From the NCBI GenBank assembly GCA_045120395.1, contig JBGVET010000026.1:5691-69690 (forward strand): a DNA stretch of 64,000 bases, in the 5' to 3' direction. A program made the translations under genes and the position numbers. The notes beneath the pieces are model-generated. The model did no database searches and was not told the origin of the DNA. It worked only from the letters and a program-made list of their open reading frames with translations. This document shows, in pieces, positions 29,020-39,610 of this stretch; position 1 is the first letter of the stretch; each line of letters opens with the position of its first letter. The stretch is from Candidatus Limimorpha sp. Its GTDB lineage: Bacteria > Bacteroidota > Bacteroidia > Bacteroidales > F082.

Positions 29020-30156
29020 ATGTTGTTTTCTCAGATTATAGGTCACGAAGACATTAAGAAAAAACTCATACAGAGCGTAAAGGAAAATCGTATTGCCCAT
29101 GCGCAGTTGTTCTTGGGTCCGGAAGGAACAGGGAAACTCGCATTGGCAATCGCCTATGCGCAGTATATCAATTGTACCAACAAAGGAGAAAACGACAGCT
29201 GCGGAGAATGTCCTTCATGCAGAAAATTCAACAACCTGGCACATCCCGACTTACATTTTATTTTTCCTTCAACGACAAATAAAAATATCAAGAAGGACCC
29301 AGAATCGGATCTCTTCTTGACAGAATGGCGTGAATATCTGGAGTCGTGCGATTGCTACGCCAACCTTTCAAATTGGCATAACGTACTGGATGCTGAAAAC
29401 AAACAAGGACTCATCAACGTACGTGACGCTTCTACAATAATAAGAAAGTTAAACCTAAAGACTTACGAGTCAGAATACAAAGTAGCTATAATTTGGATGG
29501 CAGAAAGACTTAATATCGAAGCTGCCAACAAGCTACTCAAATTATTAGAAGAACCACCAGAGAAAACCTTATTTATCCTAGTATCGGAAAATCAAGAGGA
29601 ATTACTTATGACGATACGTTCTCGTACCGTCTTGATGAAGATTCCTAAACTATCATATAACGAAGTCAGAGACGCACTCGCAAAGAAGTACAACTGCAAT
29701 GCTGAAACGATTCATAACGCAGCAGTCTTATCAGATGGCAACTGGATTCTGGCGAACAACTACATCGACAATCAAGATGATGAGAAGATATATTTCACTT
29801 GTTTCCAGAAATGGATGCGCTACTGCTTCAAATTCAGCGCACCCGAACTCATCGACTTTATCGCCAACGACATAAAACCTCTTGGTAGAGAGAAACAAAA
29901 GGAGTTCCTTGCATACGGACTCAACATATTCCATAATGCCTTGTTTATCAACAATGGCTTGATGAACAACGTATTACTTCCAGAAGATGAAAAAGCCTTC
30001 TTGAAAAACTTCGCTCCTTTCATTTCAAACAACAACATCGACTTGATCACAGAGCTGTTTGAAGAAAGCATAAACCAGATAGAACGCAATGGCAATGCTT
30101 CTTTGATATTCCTTGACGACAGCTTTAAGATTTTTAACTATTTCAAAATGAAGTGA
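29020..30156 (+). CDS. holB: DNA polymerase III subunit delta-prime
   Basis: HAQLFLGPEGTGKLALAIAYAQYINC, Zn module CGECPSCRKF, SRT-like TIRSRT. Confidence 0.85.
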   Translation: MLFSQIIGHEDIKKKLIQSVKENRIAHAQLFLGPEGTGKLALAIAYAQYINCTNKGENDSCGECPSCRKFNNLAHPDLHFIFPSTTNKNIKKDPESDLFLTEWREYLESCDCYANLSNWHNVLDAENKQGLINVRDASTIIRKLNLKTYESEYKVAIIWMAERLNIEAANKLLKLLEEPPEKTLFILVSENQEELLMTIRSRTVLMKIPKLSYNEVRDALAKKYNCNAETIHNAAVLSDGNWILANNYIDNQDDEKIYFTCFQKWMRYCFKFSAPELIDFIANDIKPLGREKQKEFLAYGLNIFHNALFINNGLMNNVLLPEDEKAFLKNFAPFISNNNIDLITELFEESINQIERNGNASLIFLDDSFKIFNYFKMK

Positions 30157-30722
30157 TGAAGAATATTAGCAAGATTTCTTTAGCTTTGTTAAGCGGCCTT
30201 TTGATTGCAGCATCATGGCCGACCTCAGGTTTTACACCTTTGATTTTCATCGCTTTCGTTCCACTGATTTTTTTAGAAGACTACAAGTCAACAAGACAAC
30301 AAGACAACAAGAGAGATGGTATTTTCGGTCTTTCGTTTTTGACGTTTTTGGTGTGGAACTCACTAACAACGTGGTGGGTTTGGAACAGCACTCCAGCAGG
30401 TTCCATCACTATGATATTGCTCAACAGCACCTTCATGGCGATGACATTCTGGCTTTATCATATCACAAGAAAAAAGATATTTCATAACAAAGGTGGATTT
30501 TTCCTTCTGATATTATTTTTCTTAGCCTTTGAGAACCTGCATCTTACATGGCAGCTCAACTGGCCTTGGCTCAACATAGGAAACGTATTCTCACATAACC
30601 ACACCTGGGTTCAATGGTACGAGTTCACCGGAACAGCAGGCGGAACAATCTGGGTCTTGCTTGCTAACATACTAGCGTATAAAGCTATAAAATCTCAGAA
30701 ACTCAGAAACTCAACAACTTAG
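30156..30722 (+). CDS. lnt: apolipoprotein N-acyltransferase, N-terminal membrane fragment (gene disrupted at octamer repeat)
   Basis: ATG overlaps holB TGA; multiple TM helices; ends KSQKLRNSTT* inside AATCTCAG/AAACTCAG array. Confidence 0.7.
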   Translation: MKNISKISLALLSGLLIAASWPTSGFTPLIFIAFVPLIFLEDYKSTRQQDNKRDGIFGLSFLTFLVWNSLTTWWVWNSTPAGSITMILLNSTFMAMTFWLYHITRKKIFHNKGGFFLLILFFLAFENLHLTWQLNWPWLNIGNVFSHNHTWVQWYEFTGTAGGTIWVLLANILAYKAIKSQKLRNSTT

Positions 30723-30784
30723 CAATCCCTCAAATCCTACTCTTCCTTGCTGTTGTTATCATTCCTATAATTGTAAGTAAGATA

Positions 30785-31741
30785 ATGTATCATTCTTATG
30801 AAGAGAAAGGAGAAGCAGTAGAAGTCGTTGTTGCACAACCTAATATAGACCCATGGAAAGAGGAATTCCGTCTTAGAGCATCTGAGATTTTAAATCGTAA
30901 CTTCGGCGTTGCAGAGCCACTTATAACAGAAAACACACGTTTTGTTGTAAGTCCAGAATCGACCATTCATGAAAGTATCTGGTTGGAAAAGATAAAATTC
31001 TATCGTTCTATAAACGAGTCTAAACTTTTTTCAAGGAACAATAACATTACATATATCGTAGGAGCTAGCACTTTAGGAATGGCATACGACAAAGACGACT
31101 TCGCAGCGCGTAAGTTCCACGATGCAGACGAATATTACTACTCATATAACACAGCCTTGTCTATCAACGACACCGCTGACATTCAGATACATCAGAAGTC
31201 GAGGCTGACACCTGGCGTCGAGATGATGCCATCGTGGTGGTTCCTGCGACCTATTAAAAATCTCGCCATTGACTTAGGCGGAACAGTAGGTACATTAAAG
31301 TCAGAAGATACGGTGACAGTGTTTGATTACGGAAGATATAAAGTAGCTCCAATGATATGTTACGAGTCAGTCTTTGGTGGTTATGTCACTGATTTTGTAA
31401 GAAATGGAGCTAACATGATATTTGTCATCACCAACGACGGATGGTGGGGCGACACACCAGGTCACAGGCAGCATTTCGAGATGTCGAAGCTTCGTGCCAT
31501 CGAGAACCGTCGTAGCGTAGCACGTTCTGCCAACACCGGCATCTCAGGCTTCATCAATCAGAGAGGCGACGTTGTTGAATGTAGCAACTACTGGGAGCCA
31601 ACTGCACTACGCAACACTATAAATGTCAATGACGAGATGACTTTCTATTCGCGTCATGGCGATTATATTTATAGAGCTGCTTCTTTCATAGCAATACTCG
31701 TCTTATGTTTCACTTTCGTAATATCAATAAAAAAGAAATGA
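30785..31741 (+). CDS. lnt: apolipoprotein N-acyltransferase, C-terminal CN-hydrolase fragment (frame open from 30683)
   Basis: CN-hydrolase E-K-C pattern: VVAQPNIDPWKEEF, HQKSRLTPGVE, MICYESVF; C-terminal TM. Confidence 0.75.
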   Translation: MYHSYEEKGEAVEVVVAQPNIDPWKEEFRLRASEILNRNFGVAEPLITENTRFVVSPESTIHESIWLEKIKFYRSINESKLFSRNNNITYIVGASTLGMAYDKDDFAARKFHDADEYYYSYNTALSINDTADIQIHQKSRLTPGVEMMPSWWFLRPIKNLAIDLGGTVGTLKSEDTVTVFDYGRYKVAPMICYESVFGGYVTDFVRNGANMIFVITNDGWWGDTPGHRQHFEMSKLRAIENRRSVARSANTGISGFINQRGDVVECSNYWEPTALRNTINVNDEMTFYSRHGDYIYRAASFIAILVLCFTFVISIKKK

Positions 31742-32723: not shown

Positions 32724-32775
32724 GTAGAGACGCGTCAATGTAACCTAAAATATAAACACACATTGACACGTCTAA
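32724..32775. repeat. palindromic element of the GTAGAGACG..TCAATG family (copy P1)
   Basis: AGACGCGTCAATGT ... ACATTGACACGTCT arms; related to 33979-34030, 46922-46972, 52983-53034. Confidence 0.7.
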
Positions 32776-32813
32776 CAGTTCTTAGTTCAACAGTTTTAGT
32801 TCTTAGTTAAAAC

Positions 32814-33947
32814 ATGAAAATACTCGTAATTCGTTTTAGTTCAATAGGTGACATAGTGCTGACCACACCAGTGATTCGTTGTCTGAAGAATCAGATTGAC
32901 AAGGTGGAGATTCATGTTCTTACAAAAAAGAAGTTCAGCAGTCTGTACAAGACAAATCCTTATATTAATAAGGTATACGAATACGACAATTCATTAAAGA
33001 AAAACATAGAAGAACTAAAACTCGAAAATTACGATTATATAGTTGATTTACAGAAGAACAAAAGAAGCTTAAGAGTCACACGCGCTTTACACAAACCACA
33101 TAGTTCTTTCCCGAAACTCAATTTCAAGAAGTTCTTGCTCACGACTTTCAAAATAAACCTCATGCCCGACATTCATATCGTCGACAGATATTTCAAAGCC
33201 GTTGAGAAATTAGGAGTAAAAAATGACTATCAAGGCCTTGACTTTTTTATATCAGAAAAAAATGATTATCCTTTGAGTGAACTACCAGAAAATTTTCAAG
33301 AAGGATATCACGCTTTCGTCATCGGGGGAACTTATAAAACCAAGATACTTCCTGCAGTAAAAATCGTTGAAATAATTCAGAAGTTAAACGAGCCAGTCAT
33401 ACTTCTCGGAGGTCCTGATGACGTGGAGAGAGCGAATGAGATTTTATCTAAAATCTCAAAATCTCAAAATCTCAGAATCTCAGAATCTCAAAATCTCAGA
33501 ATCTCAGAATCTCAAAATCTCAGAATCTCAGAATCTCAGAATCTCAAAATCTCAAATCCTCAGAATCTCAGAATCTCAAAATCTCAAATCCTCAGAATCT
33601 CAGAATCTCAGCAACTCATAAGTTTAGTCGGCAAGATAAATCTGGAGCAGTCTGCTTCTATTGTGAAAAAGGCGAAGTCTGTCTTGACAAACGACACTGG
33701 TTTGATGCACATCGCTGCTGCGTTTCATAAAAACATCGTCTCCGTATGGGGCAACACAGTCCCTGAACTTGGCATGTATCCATATCTTCCAAAAGAAAAA
33801 GAGAAATGTCATATCGTCGAATGTAAAGACGTTAAATGCCGTCCTTGCAGCAAGTTAGGGTTTAAGGAATGTCCAAGAAAACATTTCAACTGCATGATGA
33901 AAATCGATTGCGACACCGTTGTTGAAAGGCTAAAGGCTAAGGGCTAA
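32814..33947 (+). CDS. glycosyltransferase family 9 (LPS heptosyltransferase-like) with internal octamer-repeat insertion
   Basis: MKILVIRFSSIGDIVLTTPVIRCLK; C-terminal LTNDTGLMHIAAAF; repeat-encoded SQNLRISE run in between. Confidence 0.8.
   Translation: MKILVIRFSSIGDIVLTTPVIRCLKNQIDKVEIHVLTKKKFSSLYKTNPYINKVYEYDNSLKKNIEELKLENYDYIVDLQKNKRSLRVTRALHKPHSSFPKLNFKKFLLTTFKINLMPDIHIVDRYFKAVEKLGVKNDYQGLDFFISEKNDYPLSELPENFQEGYHAFVIGGTYKTKILPAVKIVEIIQKLNEPVILLGGPDDVERANEILSKISKSQNLRISESQNLRISESQNLRISESQNLKISNPQNLRISKSQILRISESQQLISLVGKINLEQSASIVKKAKSVLTNDTGLMHIAAAFHKNIVSVWGNTVPELGMYPYLPKEKEKCHIVECKDVKCRPCSKLGFKECPRKHFNCMMKIDCDTVVERLKAKG
33452..33611. repeat. 20 tandem units of octamer AATCTCAR inside the GT9 ORF
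   Basis: Counted by eye: AATCTCAA/AATCTCAG (two ATCCTCAG variants), 160 nt; all three forward frames stay open across it. Confidence 0.9.
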
Positions 33948-33978
33948 GGGTTAAAGTCCCTACAATTCCTAATTAATA

Positions 33979-37697: not shown

Positions 37698-39610
37698 GAC
37701 CACTATTCGACCCATTCGTATTGCCTTTCGTTATAAGCATGACATTCGTGCTTCTGTATTGTCTCATAGGCATGATACGCATTGTTTTTCAATTACCAAA
37801 GGAAGACCGACGCAAGTTCTTACGCTCACTCATCTATCCTAAGTCGGCATTGAAAAACTTCAGAGACCTCGTCAACGACTGTCTCCTTCACACAAAGATA
37901 TGGAAACGCAAACCGCTCCTAGGTTATATGCACATGTCCATCGCTTTAGGATGGTTTATGATTATCATCGTCGGACACTTCGAAAGCATAGCATTCTCAC
38001 CTTTGAGAGGATTGGAAGTTCCTTTCATGCCGAAATTGATGTCTAACTTATACCTCCCGATTTTCTTCCGTTACTTCGCACTTGAAGACTTAAGTCTCAA
38101 AGCGCAGATATTCAGCTTCCTGATGGATTTCTTCTTGCTGATGATAATAAGCGGCATCTTCATCGCTGCTGTCAAGAAGAAAAAACCTAGGAAAGTCGGA
38201 TTGAAACGCGTCACCAAATTTGGTCTTAAAGAAGACTTGGTGCGCCTATCATTATGGACCATTTTCCCATTACGTTTCTTGGCAGAGTCATCAATGGCTA
38301 ACATAGCAGGAGGTTCGTTCCTGACAAAATATATCGGTTTTGAATTAGTGTTCGGAGGCAATTATAACGAGACATTAAGCATGGTTTTCTGGTGGTTATA
38401 TTCCATCGACTTAGCCATCTTCATGACATTATTGCCATTCTCACGATATATGCACATACCAGCAGAAGCCTTGTTGATATTGCTTCGCAACGCAGGCTTG
38501 AAGACGACAGAACCTCGTAAAGGCTACGCTTTGGCAGAGATATATTCCTGTCCGAGCTGCGGACTCTGCATCGATGTATGCCCTATGAGCGAGGTGAAAG
38601 ACAACTACAAAAACACAGCAGTCTATTTCATCCGTAACATCAGAAAAGGAAAGAGAAGAAGAGACGTCAAAGCCATGACAGAGAAATGTCTGATGTGCGG
38701 CAAATGCATCGAGGTATGTCCTTTAGGAATTGAATCCCTGAATATCAAGATAGCACAACGTAACAAGACTTATTACAAAATAAAATCAGATTTTGAGTAT
38801 TTAAAAAGTCAACAAGCTTTGGTGTCTGAGCCTGTCGAAGGCAAAAACATCGGCACTTCGACAAGCTCAGTGACCGAAACAACAAAAAACTCAGAATCTC
38901 AGCAACTCAACAACTCAGCAACTCTATATTTCGCTGGCTGCATGTCGCATCTCACTCCGACTATCACACGTTCGATGAAGAAGATTTTTGAGATTGCTAA
39001 AGAGAATTACGAATTCCTCGATGCGGAAGGAAGCATCTGCTGCGGACGTCCTATGATGCTCACTGGCAAAGTGGAGGAAGCTAAGGCATTGATAGAGAAA
39101 AACACCGAGCTGATAAAGAACTCTGGCGCGAAAAGACTAGTACTCTCCTGCCCTATCTGTTATAAGGTCTTCAAAGAAGAATATCAGCTTGAAGGAATTG
39201 AGGTCTTACATCATACTCAATACATAAACAAATTGATTGAAAGTGATAAGTTAGAAATCGACAGAGACGACAAGCGTTATGTCTATCACGACCCATGTGA
39301 GTTAGGACGCGCCTTTGATATTTACGATGAACCACGTAATATCATCGATAACATTGGTTTGTTGACACCTGGCAAGTCGAACAAAGACATGTCTGTCTGT
39401 TGCGGAGGCAGCATCGGAAGCATCACCATGACATTAGAAGAGCGTGACGAAATAACGAAGAACTCTATTAAAGACTTGATGCATAACAATCCTGAGGAAA
39501 TAGTGACAGCCTGTCCTTTATGCCTGAAGACATTCGCGCGATTGGCACCTGTCAAGGTGAAAGACATTGCGGAGATTGTAGCGAAAAACATTGTGGAATT
39601 GAGGGTATGA
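37694..39610 (+). CDS. membrane-anchored Fe-S oxidoreductase (N-terminal TM domain + 2x[4Fe-4S] + two CCG domains, HdrD/GlpC-like)
   Basis: Five or more TM helices; CPSCGLCIDVCP, CLMCGKCIEVCP; CCGRPMM, CPICYKVF, CCGGS, CPLCLKTF; 40-nt octamer insertion at 38887-38926. Confidence 0.7.
   Translation: MRPLFDPFVLPFVISMTFVLLYCLIGMIRIVFQLPKEDRRKFLRSLIYPKSALKNFRDLVNDCLLHTKIWKRKPLLGYMHMSIALGWFMIIIVGHFESIAFSPLRGLEVPFMPKLMSNLYLPIFFRYFALEDLSLKAQIFSFLMDFFLLMIISGIFIAAVKKKKPRKVGLKRVTKFGLKEDLVRLSLWTIFPLRFLAESSMANIAGGSFLTKYIGFELVFGGNYNETLSMVFWWLYSIDLAIFMTLLPFSRYMHIPAEALLILLRNAGLKTTEPRKGYALAEIYSCPSCGLCIDVCPMSEVKDNYKNTAVYFIRNIRKGKRRRDVKAMTEKCLMCGKCIEVCPLGIESLNIKIAQRNKTYYKIKSDFEYLKSQQALVSEPVEGKNIGTSTSSVTETTKNSESQQLNNSATLYFAGCMSHLTPTITRSMKKIFEIAKENYEFLDAEGSICCGRPMMLTGKVEEAKALIEKNTELIKNSGAKRLVLSCPICYKVFKEEYQLEGIEVLHHTQYINKLIESDKLEIDRDDKRYVYHDPCELGRAFDIYDEPRNIIDNIGLLTPGKSNKDMSVCCGGSIGSITMTLEERDEITKNSIKDLMHNNPEEIVTACPLCLKTFARLAPVKVKDIAEIVAKNIVELRV

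Follow-up and report, generated by a model that had tools for sequence, protein, structure and literature searches.

A frameshift-prone octamer array in a loop of a GT9 glycosyltransferase gene of Candidatus Limimorpha sp., probably a tolerated insert with occasional natural OFF alleles

Envelope-glycan genes are the classical target class of phase variation, and when such a gene contains a tandem repeat with a unit length not divisible by three, the question arises whether the repeat serves as a switch or is simply tolerated by the encoded protein. This question is posed by an array of twenty octamers within a gene for a heptosyltransferase-like glycosyltransferase of family 9 (GT9) of Candidatus Limimorpha sp., located in a 64,000-nt stretch of contig JBGVET010000026.1 (the window, to which unprefixed coordinates refer). 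A preliminary description, made from the sequence alone, had read the array as a potential contingency locus, in which gain or loss of a single unit would frameshift the C-terminal half of a lipopolysaccharide (LPS) heptosyltransferase-like enzyme. We consider it rather probable that repeat proliferation left the array behind as a mutation-prone by-product, which a permissive loop tolerates and purifying selection keeps in frame, and that it is not a dedicated switch. This reading follows from a repeat class that also includes essential genes, an impure tract with an in-frame higher-order period, and the dominance of alleles with an intact reading frame (ON) over frameshifted ones (OFF).

Tandem Repeats Finder (TRF) reported a single array at this position (Table 1), with period 8, 20.0 copies, 90% matches, a score of 246 and the consensus AATCTCAG. 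Read unit by unit, it consists of 18 AATCTCAR units and two ATCCTCAG units and ends in a degenerate 21st unit, CAACTCAT; the count of 20 is that of the assembled contig. The twenty octamers inside the GT9 open reading frame (ORF) were recovered where they had been described, and the earlier formula AATCTCAR x20 holds for the number of units but not for their identity, lag-8 identity across the array being 88.8%. At period 8 no perfect run exceeds 31 nt (about 3.9 units), so that the long uninterrupted tract of identical units expected of a contingency locus is not present. Autocorrelation and longest-run computation also revealed perfect runs at periods of 24 nt (three units, or eight codons, in frame) and 40 nt (a duplicated five-unit block). 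After block-shuffling of the whole genome no 7- or 8-nt array exceeded 4.0 copies or a score of 40.

The array encodes residues ~213-266 as octapeptides of the SQNLRISE type, placed just ahead of the conserved region LISLVGKINLEQSA...NDTGLMHIAAA. It is open in all three forward frames and interrupted by stops in all three reverse frames. When one or two units were added or removed in silico, the products were 263-310 amino acids (aa) long and lacked the C-terminal half, and three-unit changes kept the reading frame. The octapeptide translation ahead of the NDTGLMHIAAA region, the open forward frames and the frameshift expected from a single-unit slip of a repeat with a unit length not divisible by three had all been noted in the preliminary description, and they hold by ORF translation, three-frame translation and the in silico unit changes, respectively. 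Judged from its sequence, the GT9 locus is mechanically able to turn off and on.

The assignment to the LPS-heptosyltransferase-like family (GT9), also part of the preliminary description, is borne out by a match to Pfam PF01075 (Glyco_transf_9) scoring 80.2 bits (cutoff 22; E value 1.9e-22), which falls into two stretches with the insert between them, and by the predicted structure. An AlphaFold2 (AF2) model from a 50-sequence alignment had a mean predicted local distance difference test score (pLDDT) of 85.5 and a predicted template modelling score of 0.83, with both domains confident and low values only across the insert. The best PDB matches of this model in Foldseek were WaaF 1psw (E value 7e-18), GT9 3tov and WaaC 2gt1/2h1h, that is, the two-Rossmann GT-B fold with the solved heptosyltransferases nearest. 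None of the NCBIfam equivalog models for WaaC, WaaF and WaaQ reached its cutoff (TIGR02193, 101 vs 185; TIGR02195, 92 vs 135; TIGR02201, 74 vs 170), and therefore no sugar or acceptor is assigned to the protein. The genome carries full-length GmhA-like and RfaE domain-I-like ORFs scoring just under their cutoffs (205 bits vs 209.45 and 329 bits vs 345, respectively), and an activated heptose donor in the host is plausible from its gene content. No second GT9 gene was found in the genome, leaving the window gene as its only one. Four cysteines near the C-terminus (C342, C345, C353 and C360, window ~33837-33893, CRPC...C......C) are invariant across 50 Bacteroidota GT9 homologues, and their pattern suggests a metal-binding knuckle. 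The C-terminal tails vary among close homologues (ERLKAKG, EKLKFEN, ERLKTKN, ESIILKKHCL and others), in line with the AAAGGCT array lying over the stop codon.

Where the insert sits in this fold was established by phmmer alignment to PDB 3tov, in which query residues 3-213 align to chain residues 11-238 and query residues 269-318 to chain residues 244-293, so that the 55 query residues between the two blocks stand in for a loop of ~5 aa. This loop connects the helix that follows the LLGGPDD strand with the beginning of the LVGKINL strand in the C-terminal Rossmann domain and, by the topology of the Rossmann fold, would face away from the catalytic cleft. Successive blocks of the insert score 58, 49, 40 and 38 in the AF2 model, with pLDDT below 50 at residues 236-264. 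The preliminary description had proposed a structure prediction for the ~53-aa insert, and the 3tov alignment, the AF2 model and the loops of relatives place that insert in a tolerant loop.

The history of the loop could be followed in these relatives. Orthologues at 66-70% identity (L144, L148, L150, L152 and L153) are 322-323 aa long and have a short, repeat-free loop, EILSSVNDNVVSLVGKINL. In nearer species the same loop is occupied by a variety of repeats: heptamers of TCAGCTR, or of GACAACN with CTCAG-type octamers behind them, CAACTCAG repeats, octamers of CAGATCCT or GTCAACAA, or CAGATTYT octamers arranged in a 42-nt higher-order unit. In some relatives it holds a palindromic element resembling repetitive extragenic palindromes (REP-like), translated as PEPVEGTTGEFGTSTSSVTE. 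All of these repeats are in frame. In L112 and L113, ENA ruminant scaffolds of one sister lineage, CAGATTYT/CAGATTCAAAAAGACTCT repeats interrupted by scaffold gaps take up more than 400 nt of the loop and would add well over 100 residues.

A functional role for the repeat peptide, for example in spacing, in oligomerisation as a helix or in membrane association, with its length tuned by selection, would agree with the presence of some insert in the loop of every close relative and with the prolongation of the preceding helix into the insert in the AF2 model (H201-238). We regard such a role as highly improbable, given that pLDDT is low across the insert (38-58), that sister species carry inserts with no sequence relationship to one another, ranging from 8 to more than 70 aa, and that distant orthologues apparently manage with a loop of 5-10 aa. 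Moreover, identical peptides (SQNLRISE, SQKLRNSE, QQPTANS and QQTTDNR) are found in many unrelated proteins of the genome.

Natural alleles of the array were counted on DNA, the relatives coming from metagenome contigs and metagenome-assembled genomes (MAGs). The preliminary description had proposed a comparison of unit numbers across strains, and these do vary, with 5, 6, 8, 11 and 20 units observed. Alleles with 5 units (L215, 335 aa), 8 units (L217, 345 aa), 11 units (L216, 353 aa) and 20 units (window, 377 aa) are ON, and the degenerate last unit closes the array in all alleles examined. The 6-unit allele of L120 and L121 is OFF, its N- and C-terminal halves lying in separate frames; the nearest ON relative of these two is the 8-unit L217, at 98.7% identity. 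Two further OFF alleles were found in a sister species by comparison with the ON alleles L135 and L139: L117 has lost one GACAACN heptamer, and L116 carries a change in the octamer block. Frameshifted alleles are therefore present on four contigs and derive from three different arrays in the same loop, and three independent array-length frameshifts in the GT9 loop have reached consensus level in natural samples. Enzyme activity is presumably lost in the OFF alleles.

Since a 160-nt low-complexity tract might be collapsed or expanded in a short-read MAG, we considered whether assembly errors could account for the unit count, for the frame or for some of the OFF contigs. In favour of an artefact, N-gaps lie inside the homologous array of scaffolds L111-L114, several contigs start or stop in or near arrays (L118 and the Logan contigs), and the neighbouring lnt gene, described below, is frameshifted at an array only in the window's assembly. 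The decisive OFF arrays, however, are just 48 nt (L120 and L121) or ~16-30 nt (L116 and L117) long, far below the contig k-mer of 141 and the typical read length, which makes mis-assembly of the 48-nt arrays unlikely. The ON alleles of 5, 8 and 11 units obey the modulo-3 rule exactly, and the array of the window is in frame with a non-trivial pattern of interspersed units. An artefact is accordingly a very unlikely explanation.

Several candidate alleles were set aside. L119 was discarded as a chimeric contig with low coverage, and L111-L114 were not counted as OFF because their apparent loss of frame came from the N-gaps in the array. Compensation between heptamer and octamer arrays was considered as the source of 5-aa length differences and rejected, these differences sitting in the C-terminal tail. 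A TAG nonsense codon (VK*AKS) unrelated to the repeat was seen in the GT9 C-domain of L118 (positions 94-99, contig ERZ27303451), and may be either a second, repeat-independent route of inactivation or a sequencing error. A scan of JGI metagenomes yielded two close relatives only (L031 and L032), the other matches being at most 71% identical and without the array; allele sampling by way of the window's Fer4 protein yielded only short Logan contigs, which ended ~276 nt before that gene and never reached GT9, and the window's Dus protein had no record.

ON alleles dominate wherever orthologues were collected. Each of the 29 species representatives keeps the frame, the orthologues from 39 relatives' genomes are all in one open frame, and the best 120 matches to the N-domain are full length in 120 of 120 cases. 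In the 47-member cluster that includes L116 and L117, the listed ON members occur on 74 contigs, as against 2 OFF contigs. Altogether, OFF alleles make up only a few percent of assembled contigs, and purifying selection would be the probable cause of this dominance.

The array is not an isolated feature of the GT9 gene. In the 2.36-Mb assembly (53 contigs, 38.6% G+C), TRF found 858 arrays of period 7 and 790 of period 8, as compared with 61 and 69 in a shuffled control; after merging, 1,522 arrays with 7/8-nt units (130 in the shuffled genome) cover 2.1% of the genome, and arrays of period 3-5 are almost absent. The motif vocabulary is small, with AACTCCT in 90 arrays, AATTATG in 80, AACAGAC in 69, AAACTCAG in 59 and AATCTCAG in 42. 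About 72% of the arrays lie outside long ORFs and ~195 (~13%) inside ORFs. In its excess over chance, limited motifs and mostly non-coding location this collection has the properties of the long simple sequence repeat (SSR) class with 5-11-nt units. Among named records, those nearest to this uncultured lineage from the ruminant gut are a faecal MAG of Candidatus Limimorpha sp. and numerous "Bacteroidales bacterium" MAGs from the colon or caecum of cattle, yak, buffalo and deer.

The in-ORF arrays that follow the GT9 array in length lie in genes for PolA, DnaX, a MurF-alanine racemase fusion (MurF-Alr) and a PP-loop (TilS-like) enzyme, translated in frame with 7-16 copies (polA, C46:72911-73019; dnaX, C47:28968-29047; murF-alr, C36:29776-29859; TilS-like, C30:20778-20834). 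The same length group includes arrays in genes for AroA (EPSP synthase), AroE (shikimate dehydrogenase), the ATP synthase gamma subunit (atpG) and a MiaB-like enzyme. Arrays in essential housekeeping ORFs mean that repeat insertion is not aimed at surface genes, and the preference for surface over housekeeping genes expected of contingency repeats is not seen among the longest in-ORF arrays. A one-unit slip in these essential genes would presumably be lethal, and an off-switch role can have no place there. A further kind of repeat was noticed within the window: a REP-like palindrome (CTGAGCCTGTCGAAGG ... CTTCGACAAGCTCAG) at 38826-38870 lies in frame in the linker of an Fe-S oxidoreductase, where it is read as SEPVEGKNIGTSTSSVTE, directly ahead of an octamer array. 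At least seven further copies occur in the genome, and related strains carry this palindrome in frame in their GT9 loop (PEPVEGTTGEFGTSTSSVTE).

In a dedicated contingency locus, reversible gain and loss of units would switch GT9 and hence a sugar of the LPS or lipooligosaccharide (LOS) core, with escape from phage or host as the benefit. The properties of the gene agree in part with such a role: the repeat lies in an ORF with a unit that is not a multiple of three (8 nt, 20 units), its number varies among strains with natural ON and OFF alleles, the frameshifts on four contigs come from three arrays of the same loop, one OFF lineage recurs in two samples, the gene is the only GT9 gene of the genome, and in the same assembly an octamer array also frameshifts lnt, an envelope gene nearby. 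Frameshifting intragenic heptanucleotide tracts are, moreover, accepted phase-variation candidates in H. influenzae (PMC2651432). Set against this are the occurrence of the same repeat class in essential housekeeping genes, where OFF is useless, the interruption of the tract (perfect run of 3.9 units; classical contingency tracts are pure) and the small share of OFF alleles among assembled contigs. Of the contingency interpretation in the preliminary description, the GT9 gene, the unit length, the varying unit number, the natural OFF alleles and the tolerant loop therefore stand, whereas the impure tract, the membership in a population of ~1,520 arrays, the arrays in housekeeping genes and the dominance of ON alleles do not fit it. 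A dedicated switch appears to us possible but doubtful.

Several points weigh against our reading of the array as a tolerated insert. OFF alleles do occur, and the 6-unit allele was found in two separate samples, which means that loss of the enzyme can persist, as would be expected of a contingency gene; the two finds, with flanks 99.8% identical, are probably one OFF lineage in two samples and not independent events. The GT9 array is longer than any other in-ORF array of the genome and lies in an envelope-glycan gene. The ON:OFF ratio is also only rough: protein clusters at 90% conceal truncated members inside full-length clusters, and a ratio based on cluster representatives was for that reason dismissed as unreliable. 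Consensus assemblies likewise conceal minorities, and an OFF fraction of 1-10% per sample would not show in them.

A parallel case lies 2 kb upstream of GT9. The lnt gene of the window (30156-31741) is split at an octamer array (30683-30722) into an upstream ORF with a complete LNT_N domain and a downstream ORF with the CN-hydrolase half. The near-identical strain L215 encodes an intact Lnt of 541 aa and has two extra units (16 nt) at this array; the frame is open in 13 of 13 relatives examined (484-623 aa), and the frameshift occurs only in the window's assembly. The split lnt may be a genuine null allele of this envelope gene, produced by a change in array length, or else the result of a miscounted array in the assembly. 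A geometric screen for genes split at arrays returned mostly ordinary gene junctions, with lnt as the sole confirmed case. Genes that appear split at 7/8-nt arrays in such MAGs, lnt being an example, are probably array-length variants and not ancient pseudogenes.

One may ask further whether the dense 7/8-nt microsatellites form a genome-wide "phasome" in this Limimorpha-like lineage, with slippage reversibly switching envelope genes such as GT9 and lnt. We regard this as unlikely. If true, it would be the first repeat-slippage phase variation in an order known for DNA inversion, with unusually long 8-nt units placed within protein loops. Were switching real and frequent, gut Bacteroidales would possess a slippage route to surface variation besides invertible promoters, and metagenome assemblies would systematically mis-state the ON or OFF state of envelope genes.

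We propose the following course of events for the tolerated insert. A member of the genome-wide class of 7/8-nt tandem repeats would have expanded in the helix-to-strand loop of the C-terminal Rossmann domain of GT9. As the octamer is free of stops in any frame of the plus strand, it would add a hydrophilic, probably disordered insert of 53 aa and leave the enzyme intact. Replication slippage or unequal recombination would then change the number of units. Steps of three units, or of an in-frame higher-order unit (24 nt in the window array and 42 nt in that of a sister species), would survive as length polymorphism, and changes of one or two units would frameshift the gene, remove the nucleotide-sugar-binding half and appear as natural null alleles at low frequency. 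Taken conservatively, the locus offers a natural series of microsatellites, their unit lengths not divisible by three, entering a protein loop, kept in frame by three-unit or higher-order steps and occasionally knocking the gene out. The features of the locus, including the arrays that flank the coding sequence, are collected in Table 1.

Table 1. Features of the GT9 locus in window coordinates
Feature	Position	Strand	Basis
GT9 (heptosyltransferase-like) glycosyltransferase ORF, 377 aa, intact	32814..33947	+	ORF list, Pfam PF01075, AF2 model
Array of 20 octamers, AATCTCAR with two ATCCTCAG units; pattern of last bases AAGGAGGAGGGAAgGAAgGG	33452..33611	+	TRF, unit listing, three-frame translation
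Degenerate 21st unit CAACTCAT, end of the array in all alleles examined	33612..33619	+	Unit listing
Perfect period-24 stretch, 79 nt, in frame	33460..33538	+	Autocorrelation, longest-run computation
Perfect period-40 stretch, 60 nt, five-unit block doubled	33519..33578	+	Autocorrelation, longest-run computation
C-terminal enzyme part, gone after any 1- or 2-unit change; invariant D294-T295 ... M298-H299-I300-A301-A302-A303 and four invariant Cys	33620..33947	+	Invariant columns of alignment A1, in silico unit changes
AGTTCTT-type heptamer/14-mer array, ending 5 nt 5' of the GT9 start codon; genome-wide repeat class	32774..32808	+	TRF, sequence
AAAGGCT x4.6 array across the GT9 stop codon, source of the last residues (LKAKG*)	33925..33956	+	TRF, sequence

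Contingency by SSRs in LOS/LPS glycosyltransferases is known from the tetranucleotides of H. influenzae lic2A, lgtC and lex2A and from the homopolymers of the Neisseria lgt genes. The GT9 array resembles these loci in being a translated repeat in an envelope glycosyltransferase ORF with a unit that is not a multiple of three, a variable unit number and some frameshifted alleles. It differs from them in its 8-nt unit, its interruptions (lag-8 identity as given above), its position in a mid-gene loop and not near the 5' end, the rarity of OFF alleles, its host, a gut member of the Bacteroidales, and a repeat class that extends beyond surface genes. Longer units have been considered in H. influenzae as well, where tracts of hepta- and octanucleotides within genes count as candidate switches; hmw1A and a gene for a TonB-dependent receptor carry heptanucleotide tracts (PMC2651432). 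For Bacteroides, a 2025 review describes phase variation as based on invertases and promoter inversion (PMC11868660).

At the level of the genome, the closest likeness is to prokaryotes with long SSRs of 5-11-nt units (Mrazek, Guo and Shah 2007, as summarised in PMC4679880). Comparable cases are known from Xanthomonas and Nostoc, which have heptamers (Rehm 2015, PMC4692102), and from Beggiatoaceae, Cyanobacteria and a small number of Bacteroidetes, in which TAACTGA is repeated (PMC4679880). The genome studied here shares with these genomes hundreds to thousands of 7/8-nt arrays built from few motifs, mostly intergenic and strongly variable in copy number between strains. In the passages of the surveys that deal with coding regions, these are described as holding mainly units that are multiples of three, with heptamers under-represented in ORFs (PMC4679880, PMC4692102). 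The present genome departs from that pattern, with its ORFs, essential genes included, taking up about an eighth of the arrays and with visible frameshift alleles. Rickettsia palindromic elements are known as in-frame insertions of repeat elements in protein loops. Like them, the repeats described here are dispersed and have entered a conserved enzyme in frame, at a surface loop where they do not destroy it, and relatives carry the REP-like PEPVEGTTGEFGTSTSSVTE at this very place; unlike them, the insert of the window is a tandem microsatellite that grows and shrinks by units, so that frameshifts are possible.

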